This document shows positions 1,284-63,660 of a stretch of DNA of 64,000 bases, one piece after another. The stretch comes from a virus (Duplodnaviria > Caudoviricetes). Under the pieces are notes generated by a model. It was not told where the DNA came from. It saw only the letters and a list, made by a program, of their open reading frames with translations, and did no database searches. Location of the stretch: IMG/VR virus record IMGVR_UViG_3300047375_000738. One strand, given 5' to 3'. Position numbers and translations under genes: made by a program. Positions within the stretch are counted from its first letter, which is position 1. The number at the start of each line of letters is the position of its first letter.

Positions 1284-1785
1284 TACCACTAACACGATAG
1301 TTGTATAGTTCGGGTAGTTTGTGTATTAACCAATCCTTGCCAGTTATATGCTTTCGACATTGGCTTGCACCACAGCAGCATTTATCAATAATAGTATAAT
1401 CGTGATCAATAAACCCAGCATAATCTACAGTTATTTGTTCGTTTACATTAATGTCACGCAATGCAATGATTAAGTTTTCTTGAACGTATGCTGTAGGGTC
1501 GCAACTATGATTGTGGCAACCATTTAGCCAATATTTCAATCCACCTTGAAAGTGCCATGCACTGTTTACTAAATGAAAATAATCTTGTTTGTATACAGAT
1601 CTTTCTTCTTCGGTTAACCACATACCGCCCACACGATAAATGATATCTCCTTCTTTGATATCTTGAGTAGCAAACTTTCCATAGCCAACTGTATCATTAA
1701 TAAATTGCAACTCACTAGTATTACTACTAAGTCCTAAACTTATTTCGTGTGTATTTAAATATTCAATGAGCTTGTGTTTATTCAT
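1246..1785 (-). CDS. SET-domain methyltransferase-like protein with post-SET Cys motif
   Basis: GYGKFA...I.EGD, NHSCDP, EQITVDY, CCCGASQCR. Confidence 0.85.
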   Translation of the reverse strand: MNKHKLIEYLNTHEISLGLSSNTSELQFINDTVGYGKFATQDIKEGDIIYRVGGMWLTEEERSVYKQDYFHLVNSAWHFQGGLKYWLNGCHNHSCDPTAYVQENLIIALRDINVNEQITVDYAGFIDHDYTIIDKCCCGASQCRKHITGKDWLIHKLPELYNYRVSGTILTKWLQDQKI

Positions 1786-2665
1786 ATTTTATAGGTCTTA
1801 ATAGTTCTACACCAAACATCGGAATATATTCTTCAAACGGTATTAGTTGCTCGCCGTTATCACCTAAGTTTAATGCTAATAGTTTGTCTCTGTATTCTTT
1901 ATCTAAATCCATCATTAGTTCAAAGCCGGTAAGTTTGCCTCTAGGCTCAACATCAAAATCTTCAGCAATAATACTTGGTTTAATCTTTTTACTGTTTATA
2001 TATCTATCTTTGAAAGCTGTTTCTACCCAACGATATACACTTTCTTTTTGTAAGTAACTTATCATAGTTTCTGGTGTATATTGGAAAAAACTAGGAATAC
2101 ATTCTCTCTGTATATCTCGGAAATATGTATATAATGTAGTAACCCTAGCTTCTTCGCAATCATATACAGGCTTTTTTCCTATTTGGCGTATCAAGTAGTT
2201 TTCACCACCACCAAATACAGGTATACCATCCAAACGGTTGGCAAAGTAATAATACAAGTTTAGTTGAGGACTACTACAACGTGTGACTTGTGCAAAATCT
2301 ATTAACTGTGTTTTATAAAAATTTTCCACATTGATATCAATAATATCAGGAGATATACCTCTAGCTGCACATATTCTTAATGCATAGTTTATATCATGTA
2401 AGTTAAGATTTCGCTCATATTTAAATATAGCTACTCTAGGAGTTATGCCACATGCAATAAAACTATGTAACATAACTTCGCTGTCAAGGCCACCGCTTAA
2501 CAATAAAACAAGGTTGTCTCCGTGTAAATCATAAAGTTGCTGCGCTGTAGATTTACATTCATCTCTCCACGAACTATGAGAAGTCACAGTTCCGTGTTTA
2601 AAATAAAAGTCATCGTCACATGTAAATCCAACATTTACATGATTGTTTTTTGTATATTCGAACAT
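1778..2665 (-). CDS. PP-loop (adenine nucleotide alpha-hydrolase) family protein
   Basis: LLLSGGLDSE motif; no QueC C-terminal Zn-binding Cys cluster seen. Confidence 0.65.
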   Translation of the reverse strand: MFEYTKNNHVNVGFTCDDDFYFKHGTVTSHSSWRDECKSTAQQLYDLHGDNLVLLLSGGLDSEVMLHSFIACGITPRVAIFKYERNLNLHDINYALRICAARGISPDIIDINVENFYKTQLIDFAQVTRCSSPQLNLYYYFANRLDGIPVFGGGENYLIRQIGKKPVYDCEEARVTTLYTYFRDIQRECIPSFFQYTPETMISYLQKESVYRWVETAFKDRYINSKKIKPSIIAEDFDVEPRGKLTGFELMMDLDKEYRDKLLALNLGDNGEQLIPFEEYIPMFGVELLRPIKYE

Positions 2666-2671
2666 AATAGT

Positions 2672-2700
2672 ATTATAACAAACTATTGATAGATTGTCAA
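2672..2700 (-). promoter_or_regulatory. sigma70-type promoter TTGACA-N17-TATAAT, leaderless
   Basis: Perfect consensus; ATG (2665) lies 6 nt after the -10 box and has no SD. Confidence 0.9.
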
Positions 2701-26289: not shown

Positions 26290-26488
26290 TTACTCCATTC
26301 TCCATTGCATTTATTTTATTCTGTATTCGATATAGTTCGTCCTTGTAGAACAACTTTTGTGTTTTTAAAGTTCTTACTTCTTGATCTACATAAAGTCTTT
26401 TTTCTAGTTCTATAATTTTTTCGTCTAATGCTCTATGTTTTTTTGTAAGCTCTGCTAGATATGCAGTTAATCCTTCGAGACTTGTCAT
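26276..26488 (-). CDS. YdcH/DUF465-like coiled-coil protein
   Basis: L..KHRALDEKI...LKTQKLFYKDEL pattern. Confidence 0.6.
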   Translation of the reverse strand: MTSLEGLTAYLAELTKKHRALDEKIIELEKRLYVDQEVRTLKTQKLFYKDELYRIQNKINAMENGVNGSK

Positions 26489-28038
26489 TTATACTCCCAT
26501 AATTCGTTAAATTTAGTTTGTGCATTAACAGCCTTCTTGCCAATATTTAGACGTGTTCCGATTACGTGCATCCAATAGCGATCAAAGTCTTCAATAAGTT
26601 TTAAACTTTTTTCTCGATCTTTTAAGCTAAAGATTTCGTCTACTATTTCTTTAAACTTAACTACACCATACTTTTGGAAGTCAGTATCGTTAATTAGCAT
26701 GTACGGAAACTTGCCATTGTCGTATTCTCTGTTTGCACGTTGTGTACTTTCGATGTGCATCCAGACATTATGGCCCATTTGTAGTGCATAGCTAAAGCTA
26801 TCCCAACTGGTGCTATCTTTTTTACGCACAGTAGTATTACCATCAGCATCTAGTAGAGGATTGCCTTCTTTATCTAAGTCAACATCACCTGCTTTTACTT
26901 TTATAGTACCGACTTTGTTTTTATCACCTTCTGCATAGATACAGATATCATTCATCTTGCAATGTTTGCTAATAGGAGAGTCTTCAAATGCATCTAGTAT
27001 GTTGTCAGTTATAACTGCATCACTAAACTTGCGTTTATCTGTAGCATACTTCAATGAATCGGCACCCGGAGCCATCATGTAACTCCATTTGCCACGATCT
27101 TCGATGCGGATACTGTGATAAATCTGTCCGTTTGCTGTAGCAAGAAACGGAGATGCACAGTCGTATGTAATCATAAAGTTTTTGTTATGATATTTACGTA
27201 CTGCACGTTGAATGTCTGTAAGTAATACAGCCCATTCTAACTTACTAGTACCCAGGAAGTGCATTACATCATGCAATCCTTCTTCTAGCAAGCCATCGTG
27301 TATCATATGCACAAGGCGCCTTAAGATAAGATGCACATCACACATGTTTTGTCCGCCCATTGCCCACCCGTTAAAGTGTGTGTCTGGGTATTTTGCTGGA
27401 TCACAATAGTCCTTAAACTCTTCGTACCAACTATCAGCATCAGTATGAGTACTGCCTTGTAATACGTTGAGTACTTTAAAGTTACCACGTCTATTATCCA
27501 TGTAATAACGTGCATTAATATGTGTTGCATCAACAGCATCTTGATAGCTATGAATATTTGCTGCATCTGCTGCTTTTTTGTCTTGGAATGTCCATGTTGG
27601 AATATCGAGCATCATGCCGTAATCCATATATTCTTCCATCCAGTTTACAACTAGCTCACGTTTCTTTGCAGCCAGTGGACAATCTGGATTAGTCCAATCA
27701 CCTGGCCATAAGCCTTTAGCAATCTGGAAGCCTCCGGAGTCTCCAAGTAACCATGAATTCTCTCTATCACGCTTACGTAGCATATCTTCTTTTTCACTGA
27801 ACTTATTAGTGTCAAGCTCGGCATGTCCTGCAGAATAGAGCGCCCATTTGTAGTGGAACGCTCCTTCTTTTGAATTCAAAAAGTTCATACTTTCCATTTT
27901 GTCGATACCAACTGGAATTCTAGCTGGCTCGACATACTCTTGGAAACGTTGTTTGCCTATAAAAGTAGCATAGAAGCCACTAATGCTAGGCAAAAATACT
28001 GCATAGTCCTTCTGTGCTTCTGTGAGATCTGTATTCAT
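26485..28038 (-). CDS. TGT/DpdA-like 7-deazaguanine transglycosylase
   Basis: LGDSGGFQ, MMLDIP, VLQG, GWAMGG, HFLG, YDCASP, HNV appear in the order of TGT catalytic motifs. Confidence 0.8.
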   Translation of the reverse strand: MNTDLTEAQKDYAVFLPSISGFYATFIGKQRFQEYVEPARIPVGIDKMESMNFLNSKEGAFHYKWALYSAGHAELDTNKFSEKEDMLRKRDRENSWLLGDSGGFQIAKGLWPGDWTNPDCPLAAKKRELVVNWMEEYMDYGMMLDIPTWTFQDKKAADAANIHSYQDAVDATHINARYYMDNRRGNFKVLNVLQGSTHTDADSWYEEFKDYCDPAKYPDTHFNGWAMGGQNMCDVHLILRRLVHMIHDGLLEEGLHDVMHFLGTSKLEWAVLLTDIQRAVRKYHNKNFMITYDCASPFLATANGQIYHSIRIEDRGKWSYMMAPGADSLKYATDKRKFSDAVITDNILDAFEDSPISKHCKMNDICIYAEGDKNKVGTIKVKAGDVDLDKEGNPLLDADGNTTVRKKDSTSWDSFSYALQMGHNVWMHIESTQRANREYDNGKFPYMLINDTDFQKYGVVKFKEIVDEIFSLKDREKSLKLIEDFDRYWMHVIGTRLNIGKKAVNAQTKFNELWEYK

Positions 28039-31741: not shown

Positions 31742-32301
31742 TGTAAATGCTCCTTTATTAATTTGTAATCTTTTGCGTAATATTCCTTAATATCATTAAC
31801 AAGACTTTCATCCATTGCTTCTATTATTCTATTTTGAATTTCTCTCTTCTTGGTTTCTTTAGTAGAATTAATTTTAGGCAATGGTCGTATTTGTGGAAAT
31901 AGCTTAAATTTATGTTTTAATAATATATCTAAACCTCCATCATCCATATTATAAAAGTATAATTTTCCATAAGCTGGTAAAAATTTGTATTGCGGAACTG
32001 TGTGTTCGTCAAACTCAATTTTTTTTAAAATTTCTAAAAATTTTATTACAGGATATTTTTTTCTTTGTTGAAATTCAAGAACTCCGCTAATCCAACGCTC
32101 GACTGGGTCTCTTAACACAACATGAAAAAATTTTGGTTTTACAAGATGTAATTCATTTCCAACATAAAACCAATTTCGTTCTAGGCCATAGTTAGCTACC
32201 AAGCTCGAAGCATTTTTTGGTATGCGTACAATAACATTATCTTTGTCAACTGACACACAAAGACCATAAGGATGTTTATATAAATCCAATCTTAATCCCA
32301 T
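31738..32301 (-). CDS. Sulfotransferase family protein
   Basis: IPKNASS (5'-PSB loop), LRDPVERWIS (3'-PB), H..PQ, Y.KDY. Confidence 0.75.
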   Translation of the reverse strand: MGLRLDLYKHPYGLCVSVDKDNVIVRIPKNASSLVANYGLERNWFYVGNELHLVKPKFFHVVLRDPVERWISGVLEFQQRKKYPVIKFLEILKKIEFDEHTVPQYKFLPAYGKLYFYNMDDGGLDILLKHKFKLFPQIRPLPKINSTKETKKREIQNRIIEAMDESLVNDIKEYYAKDYKLIKEHLH

Positions 32302-34973
32302 TCAAATAAAGTGTTAAATGTTGTTTTTTGTTTTGTGCTTTCTAAGTCATAGTTAAGCACACCAATAAGGTTGCCTAGTTTATTATCAATAATAACCTCT
32401 TCCATTGCATCTCCATCAAACGGCAGTTCCTTGAACCATTCTGGAATACGCAATTCATCTGTAGGATATGCAACACTTGTATAACCTAGTGGATTTTGCT
32501 TTAGTTTGCAAACAATAACTTTCATACCATCTACAATCTCTTGCGAATACTTGTCTCCATTCATACGCTTCAATGTATTCCAGTTAAGACTTGCTCTTAC
32601 ATGCCCTGGCATGTTTGCTTTGCCTTGCTTTTCTTCTAAGCGTCTGTAGTGTCCAATCTTGTTTGCACGTTTTGGTGCGCCTTTTTCCCACCCGGGCATT
32701 TCTTTAAACTCTTTACGGAATTCACTAATAGCATCAAGTAGTTCTTTTTCAGGCTTTTTATCTAGTACCATATCGAGCAAATCTTTTAAGAAGTCCTGCA
32801 TGAAAACTGGAGTATCACTGCGCTTCAAGTCCAAGCCCATTGCTTTTACTTTGCCTCTTTTGCCGTCGCTGTCACTTCTAAAGCCTTCGATGTCATACAC
32901 TAGTGCTGCATAACGTTTCTTAGTAATAAACAATCCTGTTTCTGCAACAATCTCTCTTGCTGCTGCAATAACATCGCTACGTGATCTTGGACAGTGAAAT
33001 GCATCTAACATAAACTGCGGAAATGTAGTGTTTGCCTGTTCGCATACTTGATCATACAGTGTAATTACATTGTCTTTATCCCAAGGAATGTTGCCTTTGT
33101 CAATATCATCTTTTAGTACAGGATATGCACTAAAATAACAAGAGTCAGTATCGCCATATATCATTGCTTTACCAACATGGTCATATTCGCCTGTAATAAC
33201 TTTGTTTACTTCGGCACTCATATGCTTAACAATAGTTCTGCCGCTTAGTGTAGTTGATTGTCCAATACGTTTATCAAAGAATCTACAGCCTGGATTAAGA
33301 ATAGCACCATACAAACTGTTCAAGTTAATCTTCTTAACCAACTGTCGCTTGTCCCAGTATTCGATCTCTGCATCATTTTTTGCATCTTTGGCTTTTTTAA
33401 GCATTGCTTGCAGTTCTTTACGTTCGCTATACCAACGTTTTAGCAATCCGGGAATAACACCTTCAATTTCTGTTGTAAAAACAGTACCATTTGAACTAAG
33501 CATCCAAGGTTGATTGCTATCAAAAATAAGTTTCCATATTTCGGCACCACTTAATACATGCTCTGTTCCGTCTTCTAGTTCAAGTGTAAGAGGCACATCT
33601 TTACGCTGTTCCATTACAGCATCATATTCTAATGTAGCAAACTTGCCTTCCCAAGCACCTGCAAAACTTTTCTTTTCAAGTGTAGTTGCGTTGTGCAAAA
33701 ACTCTTCTGTAAGATCTAAACGTATCTGTCCTATAATAGTTTCTGGTGCCATATTCATTGCACGAATAATACTTGGATACAGACTGTTCAAATCCATCGA
33801 ACCGATCCACTCGTGTACGCCTTTTTTTGGAAACGCAACGTATGCACCTGCTGCCGCTGTATTGCCTTCGTGGTTCTTTCTGTTTGGTACTTGTAGCCCA
33901 CGTCTGTGTGCTTCGTTAACAATTGCTTGCTCTGTAACTGCAACTGCTCCTGCTGTTGTTTGTAGTAGCACAGTGTTATCATGCGCAATTTCATTAGCAA
34001 GATCAATAAAACGTAGTTTCTTGTCTAGTTTGTCTAGTAGTGCAACGTCCTGTCTGTTGTATTCAATAAAACGTTCGAAGTCGTTGTTGTATAACTGATC
34101 AAGTGTGCCTTCATATACAGTCTTGTTCTCGCCTACTTCCATTTCACCAATAGCATCTAGTCTATATGTGTGACGTTCTTCATATGTGTACTTGCGATAC
34201 AAGTTAAGATAGTCCATATGTACTCTTCCAATAGTATCATACGTTTCGCTTGTCTTACCAAACTTTTCATATTCTCTACGCTTGGGCTTTTGTCCCCACA
34301 GACAGAATCGACGTGTGTCATCACTGCTTAAAATACGTTTAATTCTATTTACAGTATAAGGAACATCATATCCTTCACTGTTCCATCCACTGTGAATATC
34401 TGCGTCTTCGATAAGATCTAAGAACGTTGATAACATCTGTTGCTCGCCTGCTTCGCTGTTTGGAAATAGTAAGCAACTTTCACCCCAACGTTGTTTACAC
34501 ATTGCTTCTGCTTCTTCCATCGGCAAGCCTTTGGGCGGCATAGCAACTGTTACTAGCATATCTAGCCATTGTAGGTGTACAGTAATAGCAGTAATAGGCA
34601 TAAACGGATCTTCAACTGGAGCAAAGCCACGCTCTGGATCAAAGTCTGTCTCAATATCCCAAAACACTACGTTTAGTTTAGGCGCATCTTGATTAAGATA
34701 GTTTTCACTTAAACACTGGAAGATTGGATTCACATCACTTTCAAACATTGTCTTGCCTTTGTTAATAGCAAGTTCTTTTCGAAAGTCTTTTGTACTCTTG
34801 CACACAACTCTAGTTAGTGGATCGCCATAAATGCTTTTGTATTTGCCTCGCGGGTCTTCGTAATACCAAGTATACTTTGACTGATATTCATGGAAATGTC
34901 TCTTTCCATCTTTGCGCTCAACGACACGAATAATATCACTATCTCTATCAAAAAATGCATCTACGTATGCCAT
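32292..34973 (-). CDS. Family B DNA polymerase (T4 gp43-like)
   Basis: Exo WDIETD, NSEGYD, YNRQD; Pol DLNSLYPS, KINLNSLYG, YGDTDS, KKRY. Confidence 0.97.
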   Translation of the reverse strand: MAYVDAFFDRDSDIIRVVERKDGKRHFHEYQSKYTWYYEDPRGKYKSIYGDPLTRVVCKSTKDFRKELAINKGKTMFESDVNPIFQCLSENYLNQDAPKLNVVFWDIETDFDPERGFAPVEDPFMPITAITVHLQWLDMLVTVAMPPKGLPMEEAEAMCKQRWGESCLLFPNSEAGEQQMLSTFLDLIEDADIHSGWNSEGYDVPYTVNRIKRILSSDDTRRFCLWGQKPKRREYEKFGKTSETYDTIGRVHMDYLNLYRKYTYEERHTYRLDAIGEMEVGENKTVYEGTLDQLYNNDFERFIEYNRQDVALLDKLDKKLRFIDLANEIAHDNTVLLQTTAGAVAVTEQAIVNEAHRRGLQVPNRKNHEGNTAAAGAYVAFPKKGVHEWIGSMDLNSLYPSIIRAMNMAPETIIGQIRLDLTEEFLHNATTLEKKSFAGAWEGKFATLEYDAVMEQRKDVPLTLELEDGTEHVLSGAEIWKLIFDSNQPWMLSSNGTVFTTEIEGVIPGLLKRWYSERKELQAMLKKAKDAKNDAEIEYWDKRQLVKKINLNSLYGAILNPGCRFFDKRIGQSTTLSGRTIVKHMSAEVNKVITGEYDHVGKAMIYGDTDSCYFSAYPVLKDDIDKGNIPWDKDNVITLYDQVCEQANTTFPQFMLDAFHCPRSRSDVIAAAREIVAETGLFITKKRYAALVYDIEGFRSDSDGKRGKVKAMGLDLKRSDTPVFMQDFLKDLLDMVLDKKPEKELLDAISEFRKEFKEMPGWEKGAPKRANKIGHYRRLEEKQGKANMPGHVRASLNWNTLKRMNGDKYSQEIVDGMKVIVCKLKQNPLGYTSVAYPTDELRIPEWFKELPFDGDAMEEVIIDNKLGNLIGVLNYDLESTKQKTTFNTLFEWD

Positions 34974-59867: not shown

Positions 59868-60042
59868 CCATTTTTGCACGGAATCTTTCGTAAGCCCGCC
59901 AACCTTCCCAGGCAAACGCTAACATGATTCCTGTTGTAATACCGCCACCCATTAGGGTGACGATAATTAATACTTGAAATACTTTGGCAAATACAGCTAC
60001 AGCTAAAAAGTCATACCATTCAAAGTTTTCAAATATCTCCAT
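59857..60042 (-). CDS. Small membrane protein
   Basis: Start reassigned to MEIFENF; two hydrophobic segments. Confidence 0.6.
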   Translation of the reverse strand: MEIFENFEWYDFLAVAVFAKVFQVLIIVTLMGGGITTGIMLAFAWEGWRAYERFRAKMVDN

Positions 60043-60448
60043 CTTTTCGATTCTCTGAGTAATACGGGTCAAACGATCCACCGGGATAACGTTTTTCCAG
60101 TTTTTTAACATTCTCTGCAATAACATCATTAGGATCAATACCCAATGCACTGCAACTGTTCATCCAATACCACATAATGTCACCTAGCTCACGCATAGCA
60201 TGGTACTGTGTATCTTCGTCCATCGGTTTGCCTTGGAATACACACTTCTTAATGATTTCCATAAACTCGCCACCTTCTGCACAAATGCCAACAGCACCTG
60301 TCATAAGTTGCGCCATGTTCACTTTCATTTTGCTTTCAGTTGTTTCAATTTCAACTATGCGATTGTACATTTGCATACTTGATAGTGATTCGTCACTTGT
60401 CACTTCACGGACAAAATCTTTGTAACGGTTTAAGTCAACTTGGCTCAT
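60029..60448 (-). CDS. mazG: MazG-family pyrophosphatase (T4-like marine phage type)
   Basis: EGGEFMEIIKK, ELGDIMWY, NVKKLEKRYP. Confidence 0.88.
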   Translation of the reverse strand: MSQVDLNRYKDFVREVTSDESLSSMQMYNRIVEIETTESKMKVNMAQLMTGAVGICAEGGEFMEIIKKCVFQGKPMDEDTQYHAMRELGDIMWYWMNSCSALGIDPNDVIAENVKKLEKRYPGGSFDPYYSENRKDGDI

Positions 60449-60829
60449 TTATACTTCCTCTGCCATTTGTACGCCTTCGGGCTTTTCATTACTGTAAGCA
60501 AGAATACTTTCTGCTTCTACCATACGCAGAGTTTTTTCTCCAGCGCCTTCATCAATATCAATGCCACGAGTCCAGCGTCCGTGTTCTACTAACACCCAGT
60601 CACCGATCTCATAACTATCATCATTTTCTGGTCCTTTTGCATGAACCTGGCCCCAACGTGGATAGATACCACGTGAATCGCCATCATCACTAGTAAGAAT
60701 AAGTCCTGAAGCTGTCTTTTGTTCTCCAAAATGCATATTGCTTACAATAACTCGATTGCTAATAGGCCTTAGTGTGCCTTTAACTTTTGGCGTGACTTTA
60801 AAGCCACCACCCATTCCTTCTGTGCTCAT
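60449..60829 (-). CDS. groES: GroES-like co-chaperonin
   Basis: LRPISNRVIV, TASGLIL mobile loop, V.AKGP, IGDWVL. Confidence 0.8.
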   Translation of the reverse strand: MSTEGMGGGFKVTPKVKGTLRPISNRVIVSNMHFGEQKTASGLILTSDDGDSRGIYPRWGQVHAKGPENDDSYEIGDWVLVEHGRWTRGIDIDEGAGEKTLRMVEAESILAYSNEKPEGVQMAEEV

Positions 60830-61218
60830 TATTCACCTTTTCTAATAAAATTGCCGTCTTCGTCTTCGATCCAGTCGTCAAGTGGATCTGCTTTAGATTT
60901 AGCCTTGGGTTTTTCTACAGGCTTCTCTATAATTGGTTCTTCATCAAATGCTTCAAATTCTTCTTGTTCAGCTTGCGTCATTTTTGTATCTGAACTTAGA
61001 ACAGTTTCGTCACGCATACCGGGTTGTGCTTGATAGTAGTCCTTTAGCACATCTTCTCTTTTTCTAACAATTTTGCCACCTTTTCCTAGTTCGTCACCAC
61101 GGGCATTTACTTTATGGTTTCCAACTGCTGGTGTTAATTCGTTTCGACTAATCAACAGATCAAGATCAACTTGTTTGCCTCTTGCTGTTCTGTATACTTT
61201 ACGACCTTGATTTGCCAT
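60829..61218 (-). CDS. Hypothetical protein
   Basis: 129 aa, AGGAG SD, GATAAGTA at 61237-61244. Confidence 0.8.
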   Translation of the reverse strand: MANQGRKVYRTARGKQVDLDLLISRNELTPAVGNHKVNARGDELGKGGKIVRKREDVLKDYYQAQPGMRDETVLSSDTKMTQAEQEEFEAFDEEPIIEKPVEKPKAKSKADPLDDWIEDEDGNFIRKGE

Positions 61219-61235: not shown

Positions 61236-63125
61236 TTACTTATCATTTGCTTGAGCAGTACACCGCCAGTATCGGCTTTTCCTATCCCAATGATAAGCCT
61301 TTTGATACCACACTTGTGGATCAATATATTCTTTGTCGTAGTGATCAATTAAAAGTGTATCACTATTTATACCCAGCATATCATTTGCAACTTCTTTATT
61401 AGTTGTTTTTACATAAGGATATTGCTGTGTTTTGTCTCGTGTCATTGCAAGATTTAAACTTACTACTTCCTCGGCATGTTCGATATTATAATATTCTTTT
61501 AAAAACATTACCAGTTCTTTGCCATATTGTTCTTTGTTATCATGTAGTACACAAGCACTTGCGCCTTTGTATTCCCAATAGATATCGTCTTCTCCGTGTA
61601 CCTTACGGCCCCATAACTTTTGATTATAATATGTATCAATATGATGCTGTTCAGTAGCGTTGTATTCACTATACAACAAAGTATCAGGATTGTCAACTAT
61701 CCATTTGCGTAAATCTTCAAAAAAGTCTACTTCACGTATACCTTGTTTGCTTAGATACTTTGCTAGATAATGTCCAAAACCGTAATAATACATTAAGATG
61801 CTTACCCAGCTAAACATAAAGCCTTGTAATACTGTATTCCAATCTGCTGTGCGTGTACTAACTACTGCGCCAGTGTATTCAAAAATATACTTTTCCATAT
61901 CAGTATCACGTAGATAAAATGTGTCTAGAGGTATTTCCTTAACACCCATTCCATATGTATCTTGGTATTTGCTGTCGCCCATTGTAGCGTTATATGTTAT
62001 AACCAAAGGATGTATCATTAGATAACTATCTTGTCCTAAGTCAATAAGTTTTTGCACATTATTTTTTAGACTATCGTATGTTTCTTCTGGCATAGGCCAA
62101 ATAAGTTCACTGTAAGTAGGAATATCTTCTTCCCTATACTTTTCTAAATATTCCGCAACTTGTTCTTCGTTGATATTAAAGCGTTCGCTTGCAACTAGTG
62201 TTGTATCATTAAAACTTTGCATAGCAAACGTAACACCTTTAAAAATATTTACAGGTGCTTTTTTATTCATTAATGCAATATCAAAATTTCTATCTACATT
62301 GTTCTTTGCCCATGTAGCATCAAACCACATAGGATAGCCATACTTTTCTTTTGCGTCTAAGACAAGTTGTGTAAGTTCTACATCACGTTTTAGCAATCCC
62401 CAATTACTATCACAAACACTTACATACTCAATTTTGTTTTTGCCCATCCATTCAATTTCTTGTTTACAACGTTCCATATCAAACAATGTAAGTTTGTTCC
62501 AATAACTATCACCAATGTCGCAAAATGCACAGTGATAAGGGCATCCACGCAAACTTTCCCAAGTAACTTGCCACATAGTGTCTTTAGGATACTTTGCCAT
62601 AATTGGCTCATAGAATCCTTCTAGTATTGGACTTGGAATATCTGCTATGCTTTTTCTACGCATTGCCATCTTAGGCATGTGTGTACGTGTTTGTGTGTGT
62701 ACAATGTCGTCATACTCACCAATTGGTCTAGCAAGTATCTCTTTCATAGCATTTTCGCCTTCGCCGTGTACTGCTACATCAAAGTATGGATATTTGTCAA
62801 AAAACTCTTTGTCACGCTTGTCAATTTGCGGACCACCTGTTACAATTACACAATTAGGGTACACACGTTTTACTTCAGTTGCTAGTTGTTTATTGTATTC
62901 CCAGTTCCAAATATAGCTGCTCATTACAACCATTTTTGGTTCTACCATTTCTGCAACATATTCACTTGGCACTGGCTTTTCAATTAATGTGTCTACTAGA
63001 TTCCAATTGTCGTTTTTTCCATAGCACCACTGGTATGCTATCGCCAAAGGCAAAAATTTATTAGGCCCGTATGCATCACTTGCTTGTATTAGGTATATAT
63101 TATTCAACGTAAAAATTCTCGCCAA
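61236..63125 (-). CDS. Cobalamin-binding radical SAM enzyme (class B-like)
   Basis: B12 domain (P.AIAY, SSYIWN, VTGGPQ, VHGEGE); RGCPYHCAFC; ELIWPMP.ET. Confidence 0.88.
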   Translation of the reverse strand: MARIFTLNNIYLIQASDAYGPNKFLPLAIAYQWCYGKNDNWNLVDTLIEKPVPSEYVAEMVEPKMVVMSSYIWNWEYNKQLATEVKRVYPNCVIVTGGPQIDKRDKEFFDKYPYFDVAVHGEGENAMKEILARPIGEYDDIVHTQTRTHMPKMAMRRKSIADIPSPILEGFYEPIMAKYPKDTMWQVTWESLRGCPYHCAFCDIGDSYWNKLTLFDMERCKQEIEWMGKNKIEYVSVCDSNWGLLKRDVELTQLVLDAKEKYGYPMWFDATWAKNNVDRNFDIALMNKKAPVNIFKGVTFAMQSFNDTTLVASERFNINEEQVAEYLEKYREEDIPTYSELIWPMPEETYDSLKNNVQKLIDLGQDSYLMIHPLVITYNATMGDSKYQDTYGMGVKEIPLDTFYLRDTDMEKYIFEYTGAVVSTRTADWNTVLQGFMFSWVSILMYYYGFGHYLAKYLSKQGIREVDFFEDLRKWIVDNPDTLLYSEYNATEQHHIDTYYNQKLWGRKVHGEDDIYWEYKGASACVLHDNKEQYGKELVMFLKEYYNIEHAEEVVSLNLAMTRDKTQQYPYVKTTNKEVANDMLGINSDTLLIDHYDKEYIDPQVWYQKAYHWDRKSRYWRCTAQANDK

Positions 63126-63625
63126 TCTAATTCATATTTAATACTATTAATTTTATGTACGCCTATTAGGTATAGCACATAACTTGCTACACTCGATCCT
63201 CTACCTACACCCCATACAATGTCGTTCTCACGCATAAAGTCTACAAGATAGACCATATAGCGTAATAATGGTAACATACCTCTTTTGTTAAACTCTGCAT
63301 ATTCTTCAAAATAACGTGTAAGTTCTTCTTGTGTTGTGCATTTATTTTGCAAGTATGCTGCAATGTCCATGTTCTTGTATTGCTCAGGCATAAACCATTC
63401 ACTTTGACATACACCGTCAAAAGTCTTTTCGTCTACATCTAATGGAATATACTTTTGTAGTTTGTCTAGACCTTGTTCTTCCATTGCAGCATTAAATTTA
63501 TCAACATCATCATTAGAGTCACACAGAACTACGTGGCACTTGTCTACATTGCCACTGTAAATCATATCTACTAAGTCTTTATTAGAGAATCGTGGGATAC
63601 CGAGTTCGTCTGTTTTCATAAGCAT
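63104..63625 (-). CDS. Stand-alone fragment of DNA polymerase III alpha (DnaE)
   Basis: W.MP..Y, R..EE, Y.VD..R...IVWGVGRGSSVASYVLYLIGVH.I..IKY.L.W.EF. Confidence 0.75.
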   Translation of the reverse strand: MLMKTDELGIPRFSNKDLVDMIYSGNVDKCHVVLCDSNDDVDKFNAAMEEQGLDKLQKYIPLDVDEKTFDGVCQSEWFMPEQYKNMDIAAYLQNKCTTQEELTRYFEEYAEFNKRGMLPLLRYMVYLVDFMRENDIVWGVGRGSSVASYVLYLIGVHKINSIKYELDWREFLR

Positions 63626-63631
63626 ACATGT

Positions 63632-63660
63632 ATTTTAACTTACATTTATTAATTTGTCAA
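63632..63660 (-). promoter_or_regulatory. sigma70-type promoter TTGACA-N17-TAAAAT, leaderless
   Basis: ATG 63625 lies 6 nt after the -10 box. Confidence 0.8.

Follow-up and report, generated by a model that had tools for sequence, protein, structure and literature searches.

Why should a tailed phage that already carries a complete family B DNA polymerase (PolB) also encode a short piece of the bacterial replicase that ends just in front of the catalytic aspartates? The question is raised by the IMG/VR virus record IMGVR_UViG_3300047375_000738 (Duplodnaviria; Caudoviricetes), of which a stretch of 64,000 nucleotides, hereafter the window, was analyzed. On its minus strand, an open reading frame (ORF) of 173 amino acids (aa) (63104..63625; ATG start, TGA stop at 63104-63106) has the C-terminus ...ELDWREFLR* and contains at residues 139-144 (63194..63211, minus strand) the sequence GVGRGS, which represents the “GS” motif of nucleotidyltransferases with a Pol-beta-like fold. 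The original prediction, which described a GxGRGS-containing DnaE fragment ending at WREFLR, located it at 63104-63660, an interval that corresponds exactly to the ORF together with its promoter; its factual statements all proved correct. We consider it probable that the ORF encodes the N-terminal subunit (N-half) of a two-chain, intein-free minimal family-C nucleotidyltransferase, the other chain of which (C-half) is encoded by a separate gene, and that the pair would be engaged in accessory DNA synthesis beside PolB.

PF07733 (DNA_pol3_alpha) is the sole Pfam match of the ORF above cut-off, and only positions 17-94 of the 260 profile positions are matched, by residues 94-172 (E 1.2e-9, above the curated cut-off); no PHP, finger, clamp-binding or OB domain was found. 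Comparison with phmmer aligned residues 330-392 of the alpha subunit of Escherichia coli DNA polymerase III (Pol III) to residues 110-172 of the ORF and paired LLFERFL with LDWREFL, in line with the alignment to FERFLN assumed in the original prediction, while the full-length match is to PHROG 11127 (positions 11-171 of 171, E 8e-44). According to both the sequence and the structural alignment the ORF stops before DxD, hence the catalytic Asp triad of DnaE is absent from this chain. A single-chain DnaE or Pol III alpha combines this triad with PHP, finger, clamp-binding and OB domains in the same polypeptide, and the ORF has none of them. The best match among cultured phages is in PA5oct (50% identity); at the nucleotide level, megablast of the N-half region against cultured phages gave no match.

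Taken at face value the ORF resembles a truncated DnaE, and the paper on the CBB genome already remarked on a 172-aa homologue as “truncated”. Decay or frameshifting of a full-length dnaE, or faulty assembly of one, is nevertheless refuted as its origin: the end point of the protein is conserved, the ratio of nonsynonymous to synonymous substitution rates (dN/dS) amounts to about 0.13 and the structure is predicted with confidence; we give such an origin practically no credence. A word-indexed search of 5.8 billion proteins yielded at least 8,000 candidates related to the N-half, the best 120 of which are 171-174 aa long, share 76-90% identity with it and originate mainly from marine metagenomes. 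Exhaustive HMMER searching of 1.84 billion representatives resulted in 1,062 homologous clusters (at 50% identity) at E <= 0.001, and among the best 150 of these clusters the full-length matches are about 150-220 aa long, with alignments that reach their own C-termini. In 66 of 66 aligned diverse homologues the chain terminates 0-6 residues past EFLR, and residues E108, G139, G141-R-G-S144, S148, L151 and F171 are invariant throughout this set. The dN/dS calculated (Nei-Gojobori) from 39 distinct gene sequences of IMG/VR relatives is 0.13 at the median and does not exceed 0.33, with 0.11 for the N-terminal 93 codons and 0.16 for the DnaE-like part, i.e. both parts are constrained and evolution is not neutral. 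No DnaE-like sequence is present downstream in any frame, where a frameshift or an assembly break would have left the rest of dnaE adjacent; the next gene codes for a radical-SAM protein in this phage and for a conserved 127-129-aa protein in most relatives. The objection raised in the original prediction to a dead remnant therefore holds, on the grounds of dN/dS and the conserved end point.

The AlphaFold2 model of the N-half alone has a mean pLDDT (predicted local distance difference test) of 94.5 and a pTM (predicted template modeling score) of 0.76. Its residues 74-173 (63107..63406, minus strand) superpose on the pre-catalytic palm segment of C-family polymerases: on residues 277-393 of E. 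coli Pol III alpha (Z 10-11.6; 2.3-2.5 Å over 93-96 residues), residues 303-413 of Mycobacterium tuberculosis DnaE1 (Z 12.5; 1.9 Å over 97 residues) and residues 823-965 of PolC (Z 8-12). Among 48,161 representative chains only seven matches exceed Z 5, all of them C-family polymerases, with the next best at Z 3.3. Residues 1-73 (63407..63625, minus strand) form a small alpha/beta N-terminal module with a confident predicted fold, an extra element without counterpart in the aligned part of DnaE. None of the structural matches covered this module usefully, in a comparison that barely probed it. In the cultured RaK2-like homologues the alignment with the N-half begins only at about residue 77.

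Whole-record searches of PA5oct and Atu_ph07 with PF07733 found the N-half only; a single weak, sub-threshold match to PF17657 (finger domain) led to a 191-aa ORF of Atu_ph07 starting with MKNIPDIDIDF, the first C-half found. The C-half escapes detection by Pfam in a profile scan. The 116 distinct C-half ORFs recovered from IMG/VR contigs are about 190 aa long and most of them start with MPDIDIDF. Residues D3, D5, D7, K63, D65, R132-P133, K135, K163, H165 and Y169 are invariant in 54 C-half sequences and match, in order, the MPDIDIDF (412-), ALYRPGP (~660) and FNKSHA..Y (~780) segments of M. tuberculosis DnaE1. The C-half thus carries all three catalytic Asp residues as well as the finger motifs IRPxK and KxHAxAY. 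It matches PHROG 11778 over its full length, and within PHROG 405 (full-length phage DnaE) it corresponds to positions 577-678 and the N-half to positions 387-429. True full-length DnaE proteins are retrieved from the 5.8-billion-sequence database by a C-half profile at E ~1e-5. The model of the C-half (pLDDT 86) superposes on residues 401-780 of E. coli alpha and 420-807 of DnaE1 with Z 9.2, and the top 14 rows of the structural search are all C-family polymerases (next Z 3.8). The root mean square deviation of about 6 Å is high, which we attribute to the presence of two subdomains and large deletions.

As judged from the two models, the N-half (alpha 277-393) and the C-half (alpha 401-780) are exact complements without overlap. 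The fact that the N-half ends with EFLR plus 0-6 residues and the C-half starts with MPDIDIDF leaves no room for an intein; no intein halves flank the split and no sequence is left over. In this respect the phage pair differs from the cyanobacterial DnaE (DnaE-N and DnaE-C), which is likewise a Pol III alpha derived from two distant genes, however, each cyanobacterial half contains part of a split intein, and splicing yields a single chain, whereas the phage halves are intein-free and cut through the active site. A cut at or near the same pre-catalytic loop occurs in larger, two- or three-gene forms of phage DnaE (PHROGs 7513 and 13169; ~460 aa, PHP plus pre-catalytic palm), the N-half match to PHROG 7513 ending about 19 positions short of the profile end. 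The larger forms have retained PHP and are the main replicase of their phages, while the enzyme discussed here is minimal and exists beside PolB.

The two halves travel together. Relatives of the C-half are found in 96 cultured-phage records, and the numbers of records with C-half and N-half, respectively, are equal genus by genus: 34/34 for Escherichia, 11/11 for Pseudomonas, 8/8 for Salmonella, 8/8 for Erwinia, 4/4 for Xanthomonas and 4/4 for Yersinia. Both halves co-occur in the cultured jumbo phages of the RaK2/PA5oct/Atu_ph07 type and in one complete 372-kb IMG/VR genome. The closest evidence for the clade of the present phage is provided by two long contigs. G011 (236,366 bp) encodes an N-half 76% identical to the 173-aa ORF at 5.9 kb and a C-half at ~232.6 kb, 226 kb apart; G012 (236,751 bp) encodes an N-half 73% identical to it at 183.1 kb and a C-half at ~61.2 kb, 122 kb apart. 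Given a genome of about 350 kb, the size estimated for the relatives from completeness figures, the two spacings both equal ~122-125 kb. Genomes of the same clade therefore do possess a separate C-terminal unit, and an earlier, indirect link, the collinear overlap of contig G6 (with C-half) with the far end of contig G1, is superseded by these two contigs.

The original prediction proposed a tBLASTn search for a gene starting near PDIDxD; such a gene family, starting with MPDIDIDF, exists on the contigs of relatives but not in the window. The window is collinear (~70-80% nucleotide identity) with IMG/VR contigs of 165 and 180 kb that are rated 47-50% complete and lack both the C-half and its primase/helicase neighborhood. 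More generally, protein and profile searches revealed no C-half in five long relatives (94-180 kb), and this absence is uninformative, because the same five are also devoid of the primase module found beside the C-half in other genomes.

Physical association of the halves, their activity, substrate and biological role can be proposed as follows. By analogy with DnaE and Pol beta, the N-half would provide the helical portion of the palm along with the GS motif, and these would hold the triphosphate of the incoming nucleotide. The C-half, starting directly with the catalytic strand (M-P-D-I-D-I-D-F), would contribute a condensed finger domain and the three Asp residues that bind metal. One active site would be restored by non-covalent docking of the two chains, and the resulting mini-enzyme would be active alongside the family B replicase of the T4 type, its probable function being an accessory one such as repair, gap filling or the synthesis of one strand. 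“Half of a naturally split Pol III alpha”, one of the options offered in the original prediction, is thereby supported by the complementary MPDIDIDF family, by the abutting segments 277-393 and 401-780 and by the presence of both halves on the contigs of close relatives.

Several observations weigh against this proposal. The C-half is not encoded in the window (DxDxD regular expression, tblastn with the C-half of Atu_ph07, hmmsearch --max, two profiles), so that the partner is seen only in relatives of this phage. The halves are not adjacent to each other in any of 160 C-half or 80 N-half loci, and no natural fusion was found, a fusion of ~369 aa lying outside the length ranges searched. The N-half family has a conserved Glu, instead of Arg, opposite R390 of the E. 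coli enzyme. Neither half ends with a clamp tail of the Q..F..L[FW]E type, and the pair has no thumb and no evident DNA- or clamp-binding module, hence polymerase activity is not assured. Finally, the C-half gene is generally not preceded by a promoter like that of the N-half (3 of 77), so the regulatory contexts of the two genes differ.

Among longer proteins considered as natural fusions, three were rejected as chimeric-looking: P0123, P0126 (merged with its upstream gene) and P0127. In P0123 (666 aa, from one 5.6-kb ENA contig) an N-half (42% identity) is in frame with a ribonucleotide-reductase barrel (profile positions 88-523). P0127 (531 aa, from one 2.8-kb contig) is a one-piece DnaE-like protein without PHP, the final ~36 residues of which are those of the C-half of contig G006. 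P0123 and P0127 may be chimeric assemblies or real recombinants.

The same structural poverty gives some weight to a different product of the assembled chains, a non-templated nucleotidyltransferase of the Pol-beta fold acting, for example, in tailing, in the synthesis of a nucleotide signal or in DNA modification. The missing thumb, PHP, clamp-binding and OB domains and the missing clamp-type tail would be accounted for, the phage is already equipped with a complete PolB replicase, and many genes for DNA and nucleotide modification are encoded by this phage. However, the C-half retains IRPxK and KxHAxAY, the DnaE counterparts of which make contact with both the template and the deoxynucleoside triphosphate being added, and it adjoins primase and helicase genes in cultured relatives. 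We regard such an activity as rather unlikely, and templated, accessory DNA synthesis by the two-chain enzyme as the better explanation.

The N-half gene is preceded by a sigma70-like promoter motif, TTGACA-N17-TAAAAT (63660..63632, minus strand), which agrees with the consensus at 11 of 12 positions. Its -10 hexamer ends 6 nucleotides (nt) before the ATG, a leaderless geometry, and there is no Shine-Dalgarno sequence before this ATG. The motif lies in the 3'-terminal part of a 75-aa gene located upstream (...DLDKLINVS*), and the -10 hexamer includes the TAA stop codon of that gene. CTTGAC is shared by all 53 distinct sequences that precede the N-half gene in relatives, synonymous sites included, even though CTT accounts for only 21% of the Leu codons and GAC for only 36% of the Asp codons of the phage; these counts come from related sequences and are not independent. 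The -10 of the relatives is TAAAAT, TAAACT or TAATAT, at a constant distance both from the -35 (17 nt) and from a conserved ATG-CTT-ATG that follows it (6 nt). On comparative grounds, the evidence that the promoter is functional and gives rise to leaderless or nearly leaderless transcripts is good; alternatively, translation might begin by re-initiation, the stop codon of the upstream gene being 9 nt away. Thus, of the “own leaderless promoter” claimed in the original prediction, a conserved sequence feature of fixed geometry stands, as distinct from a demonstrated transcription start. The C-half gene is usually stop/start coupled (TAATG) to the gene that precedes it. As far as we can tell, the conserved leaderless-geometry promoter of the N-half has not been described before. 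A second promoter, TTGACA-N17-TATAAT (2700..2672, minus strand), is located exactly 6 nt before the ATG of a 295-aa ORF (1778..2665), which suggests that leaderless early mRNAs may be used more than once by this phage.

The promoter bears on two further interpretations. One is that the N-half works without a partner and has no catalytic role, imitating part of the host Pol III alpha so as to serve as a decoy, inhibitor or adaptor; an inactive decoy or inhibitor of the host replisome was also named in the original prediction. Its lack of the catalytic aspartates, its own conserved promoter of the early type, absent from the C-half gene, and its conserved extra N-terminal module of ~70 aa are compatible with such a role. 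On the other hand, a partner that keeps every catalytic residue co-occurs with it across Escherichia, Pseudomonas, Agrobacterium, Xanthomonas and Vibrio hosts, over which a mimic of the Pol III of a single host is not expected to remain so conserved, and the invariant residues make up the GS motif of the active site, not a surface patch. These facts make a decoy unlikely, in our estimate more so than a non-templated nucleotidyltransferase. The other interpretation retains the two-chain enzyme: since the N-half has its own conserved host-type promoter and an extra module, its expression could be timed differently from that of the C-half and its role could be one of regulation or targeting, for instance to gate assembly of the active site, to dock the mini-enzyme onto a replisome component or to interfere with one by itself; or else the assembled enzyme could do something other than template-directed DNA synthesis. 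We rate this as a minor possibility, behind the N-terminal subunit of an accessory polymerase.

A split minimal Pol III alpha in group 2.2 jumbo phages has been described from sequence by Iyer, Anantharaman, Krishnan, Burroughs and Aravind (2021, Viruses 13:63, PMC7824862), who proposed it as a model of the ancestral Pol III core; we found no experimental follow-up of the split mini Pol III in the literature consulted. The 173-aa ORF belongs to this known, computationally described enzyme and embodies no new principle. As in that system, a stand-alone N-terminal NTP-binding unit of ~170 aa is paired with a Mg/template-binding C-terminal unit encoded far off, no other Pol III domain is present and a T4-type family B polymerase is encoded as well; the local synteny is that of PA5oct and Atu_ph07. 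There is no difference in kind; the present copy is, however, from a marine clade without cultured members and has a B12/radical-SAM gene inserted right after the N-half. With DnaE (E. coli 2HNH, M. tuberculosis 5LEW, T. aquaticus 2HPI) and PolC (3F2B) the phage enzyme shares the palm segment and the GS motif and, once the C-half is counted, the catalytic triad and the finger motifs. While DnaE and PolC are single chains of 900-1,200 aa, the phage version consists of two chains (~173 and ~190 aa), is devoid of PHP, thumb, clamp-binding (HhH) and OB domains, and its finger region is condensed to roughly half. It is unusual for a polymerase active site to be built from two small proteins and to be divided between the motif that binds the nucleotide and the catalytic aspartates, and the split family is very abundant in ocean jumbo phages, with thousands of homologues. 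PF07733 was identified by Weinheimer and Aylward as the one marker present in over half of the marine jumbo-phage group PGC_A (PMC9123017). To this the present work adds a clear marine case, structural support for a junction of the two halves at E. coli alpha 393/401, an estimate of selection and the conserved leaderless-type promoter, and together these data make the pair easy to clone and test.

The genes around the C-half are conserved and are candidates for accessory factors. Upstream lies a gene for a ~240-aa protein with a C2H2-like zinc finger (PHROG 11058; L230:1047-1793, plus strand), and on the opposite strand there is a 120-aa gene (PHROG 11637; L230:2555-2923, minus strand); both have counterparts in L087-L090. 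Genes for a primase and a DnaB-type helicase follow nearby in cultured phages.

The N-half is followed directly by the 629-aa B12-binding radical-SAM gene (PF02310 plus PF04055; 61236..63125, minus strand), the TTG start of which overlaps the last codons or the stop of the N-half (TTGA). This gene is present in only 9 of 80 relatives, always at the same site and with 59-98% identity, and looks like a sporadic accessory insertion; in the other relatives the conserved 127-129-aa gene begins 30-80 nt past the N-half stop. The order N-half, small conserved gene (PHROG 14844), GroES-like co-chaperonin and MazG is common to the window (60029..61218, minus strand), PA5oct and Atu_ph07.

The phage itself is a myovirus-type jumbo phage with T4-like replication genes and a family B polymerase. 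The latter was correctly recognized in the original prediction; it includes an exonuclease domain and is encoded at 32292..34973 (minus strand). The tail of PolB, ...QKTTFNTLFEWD, resembles the tail ...QTKFNELWEYK of a 517-aa putative DpdA-like protein (26485..28038, minus strand), a similarity consistent with a shared clamp-docking peptide.

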